A DNA stretch of 54,876 nt from a virus (Duplodnaviria > Heunggongvirae > Uroviricota > Caudoviricetes), in the IMG/VR virus record IMGVR_UViG_3300030250_000013. The stretch is one strand, 5' to 3'. This document shows positions 100 through 1,660 of this stretch, piece by piece. The notes beneath the pieces were generated by a model that made no database searches, was not told where the DNA came from, and worked only from the letters and a program-made list of their open reading frames with translations. The position numbers and the translations under genes were made by a program. Position 1 is the stretch's first letter. Each line of letters starts with the position of its first letter.

Positions 100-116
100 C
101 AAGAATTATTTTAAGG
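74..116 (-). promoter_or_regulatory. conserved phage promoter module, copy 1 (minus orientation)
   Basis: Minus strand reads TTAAAATAATTCTTGACA (-35 TTGACA at 97-102), 17-nt spacer, -10 GATAAT (74-79); faces the window end / ParB-like gene across the terminal repeat. Confidence 0.6.
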
Positions 117-506
117 ATATGGAACCCACACAGTTAAACCAGCTTTCAACATGCGACGATGCATATCAGCAGTACCACGCCCACCGGGGAACACAACACC
201 GTATGTAGGACGTGGCTCACCCTCTAACATCGCCTGATTACGTTGATGACCTGCAACAGCGTTATAAGCCCCGTGCTTACCCTGTTTTACAACCGCACCA
301 GGTACAGTCAGATCGTCCCACGCTGCCGGGCAACTACGCACAGGAATACCGTGTAATTGCGCCCATTGCTTACACAGGTTATCAACACCTGACGCACCAC
401 CTTCAATTAGTTCGGTAACCGGAAATTGTTTGTGAAGTAGTCCTAACGCGGAAAACACTGCTGTTCTGTCGTTAAAGTCACGACCACCTGTGACGACAAT
501 TATCAT
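111..506 (-). CDS. DUF2493 / SLOG-family (DprA-like Rossmann) protein
   Basis: 131 aa; MIIVVTGGRDF...GGASGVDNL...AAWDD...HQRNQAML...GVVFPGGRGT pattern typical of DUF2493 phage proteins; 4-nt overlap with upstream gene. Confidence 0.5.
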   Translation of the reverse strand: MIIVVTGGRDFNDRTAVFSALGLLHKQFPVTELIEGGASGVDNLCKQWAQLHGIPVRSCPAAWDDLTVPGAVVKQGKHGAYNAVAGHQRNQAMLEGEPRPTYGVVFPGGRGTADMHRRMLKAGLTVWVPYP

Positions 507-1183
507 TGTTTATTAGCCTCAAATACAGCGCGAGCAAAACCACGCGGGGTTAATGAACGTAACTGTTTAGTTGTTTCAGACTTACCACCCAGATATTTCC
601 AGCCCCAGAAGAAACCAATATTAATCGGTCCAGGACGTTTTTCAGGCATTCTGAAACCGTTACCGAACCACAGACATGTTTTCTTCGTGTATCCGTCAAA
701 CATCGGCATTTTAGGGTGAAAAGGTTTATCATCTGTTGTCATATAACCGCCATATTCCCACGGATGAAAATAAGCGTCAGGTGTCCCCATCATTTCAGGA
801 CGTGATAAAGCACCGACAGGGTTTTCGACCATCCAGGGTACATCATAACGTTCTCCAAGTTCCCGGATTAGTTTTGCGTTTGCCAGTGCATACTGTAGTT
901 CAGCGTCATCCCGGTCATGTTGTGAACCGCTTTGAGCAAACAGGGTGCAATCCGGGAAACCAAAAATAATCGACGGTAAAGGTGTTCCCAGTATTTCCTG
1001 CTTAATTGCAAATTGTGGGTCAATCCACTGATTAACGTAATGAAGATTGGGGTGATCAGCTTTAATAAAATATTCCCCGTGATTAGCGGAATCAGCATTA
1101 AAACAATAAACCTGATAACCATGTATCGCCCACGGTAAACCCATAATCCCGGAACCGTCGAACAATGACCAGACAATTTTCAT
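503..1183 (-). CDS. DNA (cytosine-5)-methyltransferase-like protein, catalytic core only (no target-recognition domain)
   Basis: 226 aa; motif I LFDGSG (FxGxG) at aa 7-12, GFPDCTLFAQSG at aa 75-86 in the place of the PCQ motif, MVENPVG (ENV motif) at ~aa 120; spacing matches the C5-MTase fold but the protein is ~100 aa shorter than typical enzymes. Confidence 0.5.
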   Translation of the reverse strand: MKIVWSLFDGSGIMGLPWAIHGYQVYCFNADSANHGEYFIKADHPNLHYVNQWIDPQFAIKQEILGTPLPSIIFGFPDCTLFAQSGSQHDRDDAELQYALANAKLIRELGERYDVPWMVENPVGALSRPEMMGTPDAYFHPWEYGGYMTTDDKPFHPKMPMFDGYTKKTCLWFGNGFRMPEKRPGPINIGFFWGWKYLGGKSETTKQLRSLTPRGFARAVFEANKQ

Positions 1184-1395
1184 CCTTCTGTCTCCTCGAC
1201 GATCCTCGTGATTTTAACCGGCGCGATTGTTACTTTTCTGCAATTGAAACCTTGATCACGAAGTGCTTTAAGTGCAACACCAGCCATGTAAGTTGAACTG
1301 AACAGAGTAGCTTCACTGATATCAACCCAGGTAATCCGGGTATCAATATGTGCATAACGGTCTTCTTTTTTGATTACAGCACCGAATTCAGTCAT
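1180..1395 (-). CDS. hypothetical protein
   Basis: 71-aa ORF translationally coupled to neighbours in the same operon. Confidence 0.4.
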   Translation of the reverse strand: MTEFGAVIKKEDRYAHIDTRITWVDISEATLFSSTYMAGVALKALRDQGFNCRKVTIAPVKITRIVEETEG

Positions 1396-1585
1396 GATCG
1401 TTTTTCACTCCCCACATGCAAGCACCAATTGATGCAGCAGCCGCTAATAATCCAAGACCCGCCAGAAACCACCACGGTGTTTCCGCATGATTACCACGGG
1501 TCATTAGTCCGACAATACAAGACGCGAGTGTTACGGATACAAGAAATACAATAACAGTAATTAAACGGTCAAATATGTTTTTCAT
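1388..1585 (-). CDS. small membrane protein (two predicted TM helices)
   Basis: Start chosen at ATG 1585 preceded by AAGGAG with 8-nt spacing; hydrophobic segments ITVIVFLVSVTLASCIVGL and WWFLAGLGLLAAAASIGA. Confidence 0.45.
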   Translation of the reverse strand: MKNIFDRLITVIVFLVSVTLASCIVGLMTRGNHAETPWWFLAGLGLLAAAASIGACMWGVKNDHD

Positions 1586-1616
1586 AACAATCACTCCTTG
1601 TTCACTTGATGTACAG

Positions 1617-1660
1617 ACTATAGCGCACACATCTGTAATTCGTCAAGAATTATTTTACAC
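1617..1660 (-). promoter_or_regulatory. conserved phage promoter module, copy 2 (minus orientation)
   Basis: Minus strand TAAAATAATTCTTGACG, 18-nt spacer, -10 TATAGT (1617-1622); sits upstream of the 1585->111 operon. Confidence 0.6.

Follow-up and report, generated by a model that had tools for sequence, protein, structure and literature searches.

A predicted miniature Dcm-like cytosine methyltransferase in an early-gene block of a Sashavirus phage, and its relation to a neighboring SLOG gene

Results and discussion

The IMG/VR virus record IMGVR_UViG_3300030250_000013, a stretch of 54,876 nucleotides (nt) referred to here as the window, encodes on its minus strand, at 503..1183, a protein of 226 amino acids (aa) that is most probably an autonomous, early-expressed orphan DNA cytosine-C5 methyltransferase (C5-MTase) of a miniature phage 'Dcm-like' family, and whose activity we infer. 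The gene belongs to a run of four minus-strand open reading frames (ORFs), downstream of a gene for a 784-aa primase-helicase, at 1388-1630, 1180-1395 (71 aa), 503-1183 (226 aa) and 111-506 (131 aa, a SLOG-superfamily protein). Successive ORFs overlap by 8 nt at 1388-1395 and through ATGA stop/start junctions at 1180-1183 and 503-506. An earlier note on this DNA, made from its letters, had listed these genes and the ATGA coupling of the 226-aa ORF to the 131-aa ORF, both of which were confirmed in the sequence. For a Sashavirus (9NA-like) phage, there is nothing unusual about this block of early genes.

A C5-methyltransferase fold with a minimal recognition segment

The 226-aa protein shows LFDGSG (residues 7-12), GFPDCT (75-80) and MVENPVG (118-124), that is, the motif I, catalytic Cys and ENP regions of C5-MTases in the canonical order that had been pointed out earlier, and RSLTPRGFARA (209-219) resembles motif IX. 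The catalytic positions are C79 in FPDCT, E120 in ENP and K167/K168 in YTKKT, the last standing in the place of the QxRxR of motif VIII. Only about 34 residues (175-208) separate the motif VIII strand (169-174) from motif IX, and the protein ends right after the latter. A target recognition domain (TRD), which would lie between motifs VIII and IX, is thus essentially absent, and the earlier remark that 226 aa leave no room for one holds.

Structure prediction, which the earlier note had proposed for both this protein and its SLOG neighbor, gave the C5-MTase fold for the former (AlphaFold2 with 22 homologues; predicted local distance difference test (pLDDT) 86, predicted template modeling score (pTM) 0.87) and a LOG/DprA fold for the latter (pLDDT 96). 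The model of the 226-aa protein carries C5-MTase-specific elements on a class I fold of methyltransferases dependent on S-adenosylmethionine (AdoMet), has DNMT3A and DNMT3B as its best structural matches, and is disordered in the catalytic loop at residues 85-89. As modeled, the protein is supported as a C5-MTase-fold protein with essentially no TRD. At the level of profiles, phrog_757 ('DNA methyltransferase') matches residues 1-225 with an E-value of 1.1e-78. PADLOC returned just MTase_II matches at E-values of about 0.02, none of the four proteins of the block matched NCBIfam, and searches of solved structures (PDB) by sequence yielded nothing useful for the 226-aa protein, whether the query was the protein itself or a profile. 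Its assignment to the C5-MTases is therefore made on the fold and on PHROG and homologue evidence, not on Pfam.

A common family with a characterized member

The members of the family are numerous and short by design, and the family is already CHARACTERISED. Searches by tblastn detect it in 1,491 of 50,697 phage records, including Drexlerviridae, Webervirus, Dhillonvirus, Jersey-like, Vequintavirus, Phapecoctavirus and T4-like phages, and the usual annotation in such records is 'Dcm-like C5 cytosine methyltransferase'. When 1.8 billion representatives were searched with a profile, the result was 1,734 clusters at 50% identity, almost all with lengths of 200-260 aa; 629 homologues of the 226-aa protein were found. 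Conservation was counted in an alignment of 229 family members, using the numbering of the window protein. C79, E120 and P122 each occur in 228/229 members and N121 in 224/229, while Y165, K167, T169 and W172 are invariant (229/229). Motif I, the predicted AdoMet-binding site, keeps F8 in 173/229 and G12 in 199/229.

Activity has been studied in the Drexlerviridae phage K42, which is 95.4% identical to KarlJaspers (Bas06) and whose 711-bp dcm gene is disrupted in all of its escape mutants on retron Ec86; the enzyme triggers this retron, and phage that has lost the gene escapes it (10.1101/2023.08.16.553469). Expression of K42 Dcm raises 5-methylcytosine (5mC) on the multicopy single-stranded DNA (msDNA) of Ec86, as measured by liquid chromatography-mass spectrometry, and expression of the C82A/E128A/K175A/K176A mutant does not (10.1101/2023.08.16.553469). 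The authors assigned substrate binding to K175 and K176, two of the four positions changed in this mutant, and also aligned their model of K42 Dcm to DNMT3A (10.1101/2023.08.16.553469). KarlJaspers carries a 711-bp 'Dcm-like' coding sequence (CDS; 236 aa), whose product shares 43% identity with the window protein along the entire length (E-value of 2e-58), and C82, E128, K175 and K176 of the K42 type align with C79, E120, K167 and K168. The preprint on K42 and retron Ec86 was reportedly published later (Cell Rep 2024;43:114857). Given this identity and the aligned Cys, Glu and Lys-Lys residues, the window protein is a homologue of an enzyme that makes 5mC in vivo. The earlier note had argued for some function other than that of an orphan methylase; this is not supported, as the homologue K42 Dcm behaves as an orphan C5-methyltransferase in vivo (10.1101/2023.08.16.553469).

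The window protein and the Dcm of K42 and KarlJaspers share family, size class, motif order, a minimal TRD and the aligned catalytic residues. They differ in the catalytic motif, FPDCT in the window protein and FPPCT in the other, in the 175-208 segment, which is shorter and different in the window protein, and in origin, the window protein coming from a 9NA-like phage instead of a member of the Drexlerviridae. The catalytic domains of DNMT3A and DNMT3B are more distant, being 14% identical to the window protein, about 285 aa long and eukaryotic, and acting as oligomers with regulatory domains. Neither a study of the Bas51 adenine methyltransferase and retrons nor one of Danish wastewater phages contains anything on the activity of the small Dcm-like family.

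Within the genus, the gene exists in more than one form. In phages Sasha, Sergei and Solent, residues from about 36 to 209 are swapped for an FPPCT allele with 50.6% identity to the window protein, while the flanks are 94-99% identical. The swapped region corresponds to 557-1076 of the window and to 1270-1813 of the locus from Salmonella phage Sergei (L173), and covers both the catalytic loop and the TRD-like segment. The exchange looks like the allele shuffling seen for specificity determinants.

Proposed mechanism and points that weigh against it

In the mechanism we propose, AdoMet would be bound through motif I (LFDGSG), Cys79 would attack C6 of a flipped-out cytosine, and Glu120 of the ENP motif would protonate N3. 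Lys167 and Lys168 would replace the arginines of motif VIII, and the methyl group would be transferred to C5. The target would be read by the segment of about 34 residues at 175-208 together with the catalytic loop, possibly with oligomerization as in DNMT3. The 5mC so placed on phage DNA, host DNA and msDNA would, we infer, protect against cytosine-sensitive restriction; its cost would be detection by methylation-sensing defenses, retron Ec86/Eco1 and type IV restriction among them. The SLOG, 71-aa and lipoprotein genes of the block would be independent cargo sharing the promoter, and the SLOG protein may be a LOG/DprA-like, nucleotide- or single-stranded DNA-binding accessory of the replication module. 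A role in DNA modification or anti-defense, as suggested in the earlier note, is therefore right as to the general area; what does not stand is the significance it attached to a pairing with SLOG and to the PDC variant.

Several observations set the protein apart from canonical C5 enzymes or weigh against its being a DNA C5-methyltransferase of this kind. Canonical bacterial type II and orphan enzymes of PF00145 (M.HhaI, M.HaeIII and E. coli Dcm) have 327-472 aa with a TRD of 80-150 aa, compared with 226 aa and about 34 aa here. Relative to them, the RxR of motif VIII has become YxKKT, motif X is not recognizable, and the Pro of the Pro-Cys pair in motif IV is not conserved in the family, being Asp in the window protein, although Cys79 is present. 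Pfam family PF00145 gives no match to the 226-aa protein at an E-value of 1 or below and matches just 3 of 46 diverse family members, weakly (best E-value 0.0067); of the two Pfam assignments that the earlier note had offered for checking, only DUF2493 (PF10686), for the 131-aa protein, was borne out. When the family profile was aligned by hhalign to the single sequence of E. coli Dcm, motifs I, IV and VI fell in register, but the match was not significant. That K42 Dcm targets CCWGG was an assumption carried over from E. coli Dcm, backed solely by mutation of a site in the msDNA (10.1101/2023.08.16.553469). The authors of the BASEL collection saw no simple correlation between such MTase genes and resistance to restriction (PMC8594841), which is why the anti-restriction benefit is stated conditionally above. 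Finally, SLOG genes are coupled to other families of MTase in a few unrelated phages, leaving some room for a functional link.

A variant of the reading as a DNA C5-methyltransferase, which we consider possible without favoring it, is that the enzyme methylates cytosine with no or very low sequence specificity, as a cytosine analogue of M.EcoGII, rather than being a CCWGG-type Dcm. Just 34 residues or so occupy the TRD position, and the best structural matches, DNMT3A and DNMT3B, read only CpG with a small TRD. Moreover, msDNA 5mC is low in dcm+ MG1655 until the phage enzyme is expressed (10.1101/2023.08.16.553469), which would be odd if both enzymes recognized CCWGG. Against low specificity, mutation of the CCTGG site of the msDNA abolished defense (10.1101/2023.08.16.553469), and the 175-208 segment varies from allele to allele and from subclade to subclade, as a specificity determinant would. 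The window itself contains 89 CCWGG sites, compared with 57 +/- 6.5 in dinucleotide-preserving shuffles; the site is thus over-represented rather than avoided, a count that is compatible with a phage-encoded C5-methyltransferase but is not diagnostic and says little about specificity.

The methyltransferase and SLOG genes in related phages

The earlier note had also joined the MTase and SLOG proteins into a functional pair. Pairing was tested from both sides, using 80 viral MTase loci (6 kb) and 80 viral SLOG loci (5 kb). A SLOG gene lies within 6 kb of the MTase gene in 3/80 MTase loci, all three of the window lineage, and a member of the MTase family lies within 5 kb of SLOG in 6/80 SLOG loci, four of these six also being from the window lineage. 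Conversely, 77/80 MTase loci have no SLOG gene and 74/80 SLOG loci no such MTase within these distances. Phage 9NA keeps the MTase (gp78, with FPDCT), and two unrelated small genes (gp79 and gp80) fill the SLOG slot. Bas82 keeps SLOG, but the bases corresponding to 510-1167 of the window are replaced by about 200 nt that encode an unrelated 65-aa protein; this ORF, at 1972-2169 of the Bas82 locus (L002), replaces the MTase body at the same junctions and has no similarity to the methyltransferase. A gap of 190-680 nt lies between the MTase and SLOG genes of the Klebsiella relatives.

The conserved co-occurrence and adjacency by which a two-gene MTase and SLOG system would be recognized were not found, and conserved pairing as a general rule was rejected; the functional pair of the earlier note is not supported, in view of these counts and of the MTase-only 9NA and SLOG-only Bas82. 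As far as gene order can tell, the association is lineage-specific synteny; each gene has evidently been kept, lost and exchanged separately, with SLOG as an independent passenger. The ATGA overlap is what is expected of tightly packed phage early genes. When the same-strand neighbors within 2.5 kb of the MTase in the 80 MTase loci were clustered, no family was common to Sashavirus and other lineages. A TRD supplied in trans by a partner was also considered and rejected, since no neighbor family is shared and the 71-aa gene persists in Bas82, which lacks the MTase.

SLOG genes do occur beside DNA MTases of several kinds. Among 79 upstream neighbors of SLOG genes there are two MT-A70 genes, one canonical PF00145 gene and three small C5-like genes. 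To illustrate, a high-GC IMG/VR contig (L163, 5001-6088) has SLOG followed by an overlapping gene for a 252-aa small C5-like protein (GFPPCT, IENPIG and YSKKT), the reverse of the order in the window. In Vibrio phage K389 (L175, 1947-2839), a primase gene is followed by genes for a 185-aa DPPW (MT-A70-type) N6-adenine methyltransferase and for SLOG, with 4-nt overlaps; its SLOG homologue is 46% identical to that of the window, so that a non-homologous methyltransferase holds the same slot. We regard such coupling as a weak enrichment, because both kinds of gene live in replication modules; it is commoner than would be guessed by chance, but gives no evidence for a system.

These cases, nevertheless, speak for a two-component module, in which SLOG would act on a nucleotide-derived substrate or product of the MTase, by supplying, removing or sensing it, or would target the MTase, and in which the modification of DNA or nucleotides would go beyond 5mC. 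To the ATGA translational coupling in the window and the retention of the pair in Sashaviruses and Klebsiella 9NA-like phages, they add an independent, reverse-order adjacency (L163), the non-homologous MT-A70-type MTase of K389, which is coupled to SLOG at the syntenic position, and DNA MTases of three families making up about 6/79 of the upstream neighbors. We nonetheless judge such a module improbable. The genomes of 9NA and Bas82, each lacking one partner, are otherwise collinear with those that have both, the Klebsiella relatives separate the two genes, and the locus counts given above run the same way. K42 Dcm works alone from a plasmid (10.1101/2023.08.16.553469), and no SLOG or DUF2493 protein is annotated in KarlJaspers, for which 50 kb of annotation was consulted and no SLOG search was made. 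The commonest neighbors of SLOG are, in any case, sigma factors and SF2 helicases. The preferred reading of the 226-aa protein thus remains that of an MTase acting independently of SLOG.

The SLOG protein and its usual neighbors

The 131-aa protein (111..506, minus strand), whose start overlaps the MTase stop, is a YAcAr protein of the SLOG superfamily, as the earlier description of it as DUF2493/SLOG-like and related to DprA had anticipated. It matches PF10686 (YAcAr SLOG, formerly DUF2493) with an E-value of 1.1e-19 and 70.5 bits, compared with a gathering cutoff of 28.2, and a Foldseek search with its model finds LOG (1wek and 5wq3), DprA (3uqz) and ShosA (8zva) at TM scores of 0.6-0.69. 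Residues conserved in the homologues are G7, G8 and R9, G36, G40, D42, R89 and N90, and G108, G111 and T112, corresponding to the invariant motifs GGR, GxxGxD, RN and PGGxGT. In its gathering-level score, its LOG/DprA fold and its GGR, GxxGxD and PGGxGT motifs, the protein is a typical member of the family; unlike most relatives, it has an insertion of about 17 residues (at about 65-81), found in just 10 of the other 27 aligned homologues. For YAcAr proteins, a function in signaling by NAD+- or ADP-ribose-derived molecules has been predicted computationally (PMC7824862).

The most frequent neighbors of SLOG genes are sigma factors (11 upstream) and superfamily 2 (SF2) helicases (11 downstream). 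In about 11 of the 80 viral SLOG loci (L097-L099, L117, L120-L125, L129 and similar loci), a sigma-70-family factor lies upstream and an SF2 ResIII/DEAD helicase downstream, and this arrangement, seen in IMG/VR contigs, is the commonest SLOG context in the sample. DUF2493 also occurs fused to HelB, a helicase of ICP1. SLOG homologues that are 45-46% identical occur in the Seuratvirus phages CAjan, Seurat and Skure and in similar Escherichia phages of about 57-60 kb (H162-H189). The SLOG gene of CAjan is surrounded by small hypothetical genes and does not adjoin a methyltransferase gene. CAjan is classified in the Queuovirinae, and Skure has been reported to possess a 7-deazaguanine DNA hypermodification system.

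LOG enzymes hydrolyze N6-substituted AMP. By analogy, and because SLOG is coupled to three non-homologous types of DNA MTase (small C5-like, MT-A70 and canonical PF00145), there might be a functional tie between YAcAr SLOG proteins and the methylation of phage DNA generally, a LOG-like protein destroying methylated (deoxy)nucleoside monophosphates (5m-dCMP and m6-dAMP) set free from methylated DNA and so hiding them from defenses that sense them. A defense that senses m6-dAMP has been reported (PMC12871103). We rate this tie, a speculation from a weak enrichment, as a long shot.

The residue before the catalytic cysteine

The PDC variant pointed out in the earlier note is real in the sequence but is not a special marker. 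P77, two positions before the Cys, is found in 221/229 members, but the residue immediately before the Cys is P in 98, D in 91, S in 21, E in 8, V in 8 and Q in 2 of the 229. Judged from the alignment, PDC is among the variants that this position tolerates and is typical of an enterobacterial-phage subclade at 50% identity or more, and since residue 78 varies in this way, it gives no evidence of a different chemistry. That the FPDCT subclade, with its Asp-Cys and no motif X, might not consist of DNA 5mC methyltransferases at all, its members being inactive, acting on another substrate (RNA or free nucleotides) or using another cofactor such as carboxy-SAM, we therefore consider very unlikely: the catalytic Cys, Glu and Lys are invariant beside the variable position 78, a pattern that points to an active enzyme under purifying selection, FPDCT and FPPCT alleles interchange in the same slot of near-identical phages, the block contains no gene for a CmoA-type carboxy-SAM synthase, and CmoX has 333 aa and a full TRD.

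The remaining genes of the block and its promoters

Across bases 1-4100, the closeness of the window in nucleotide sequence is 96-97% for Sashavirus BDX09P1 and the Escherichia phages PDP46 and PJ16, and 83% for Salmonella phage 9NA (percent identity); by this measure, its source is a 9NA-like siphophage of the genus Sashavirus. In BDX09P1, PDP46 and PJ16 the same genes already bear the labels 'cytosine specific methyltransferase' and 'SLOG cluster4 family protein'. The 784-aa replication protein (1676-4030, minus strand) has an NrS-1-polymerase-like HBD together with D5_N, DUF5906 and Pox_D5 helicase parts, and matches phrog_1829 with an E-value of 2e-229. It resembles a primase-polymerase/helicase fusion.

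The first gene of the block most likely encodes a 65-aa lipoprotein (198-nt CDS at 1388..1585, minus strand), with a signal peptide bearing the lipobox LASC and a second hydrophobic helix, in place of the 80-aa membrane protein with two transmembrane segments that had been read from the listed ORF. That ORF, starting at GTG 1630, is probably over-extended. The start is placed at ATG 1585 because an AAGGAG site lies upstream of it, because of the LASC lipobox, because phrog_22517 ('lipoprotein') matches residues 16-80 of the 80-aa ORF (E-value of 3.9e-47), and because a 198-nt lipoprotein CDS is annotated likewise in PDP46 and Sergei. The 71-aa protein upstream of the MTase is present as described before (1180..1395, minus strand), matches phrog_26050 of unknown function (E-value of 2.5e-48), and its stop overlaps the MTase start through ATGA. 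Both 9NA (as gp77) and Bas82 keep its gene, although the latter lacks the MTase.

A promoter-like site on the minus strand at 1617..1654 (-35 TTGACG, an 18-nt spacer and -10 TATAGT; hexamers 1646-1617) carries the 13-mer AATAATTCTTGAC and is the presumed start of a four-gene transcript. The next copy (TTGACA, 17 nt, GATAAT; minus strand, 74..110, hexamers 102-74), also with the 13-mer, follows directly after the SLOG stop and, as a predicted promoter, marks the downstream limit of the block. The earlier suggestion of a four-gene unit preceded by one copy of a recurring promoter is thus correct at the level of sequence, with copies of the 13-mer flanking the block and the promoter itself a prediction; bases 111-1654 are probably one early/replication-module transcription unit with four small accessory genes, which would be co-transcribed.

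The 13-mer consists of the -35 hexamer and an upstream AT-rich element. It has 11 exact copies in the window, three on the minus strand (98-110, 1642-1654 and 32567-32579) and eight on the plus strand (7015-7027, 32874-32886, 36771-36783, 40765-40777, 44213-44225, 45983-45995, 47597-47609 and 48085-48097); with up to two mismatches there are 17 copies, compared with 2.3 expected. The facing pair at 32567 (minus) and 32874 (plus) suggests divergent transcription from that point.

Conclusions

The 226-aa protein joins a very common, partly characterized family that is already annotated in near-identical GenBank genomes. As the family is common and annotated and has a characterized member, the gene matters little as a discovery. 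Two general questions go with these families, neither of them specific to this window: how a C5-methyltransferase of about 226 aa picks its target, and which target, with a recognition segment of about 34 residues, and what role is played by the widespread YAcAr/DUF2493 SLOG proteins of phages. Given the family to which the MTase is assigned, retron Ec86/Eco1 and type IV restriction may act against phages that carry this gene, a point relevant to the prediction of host range.

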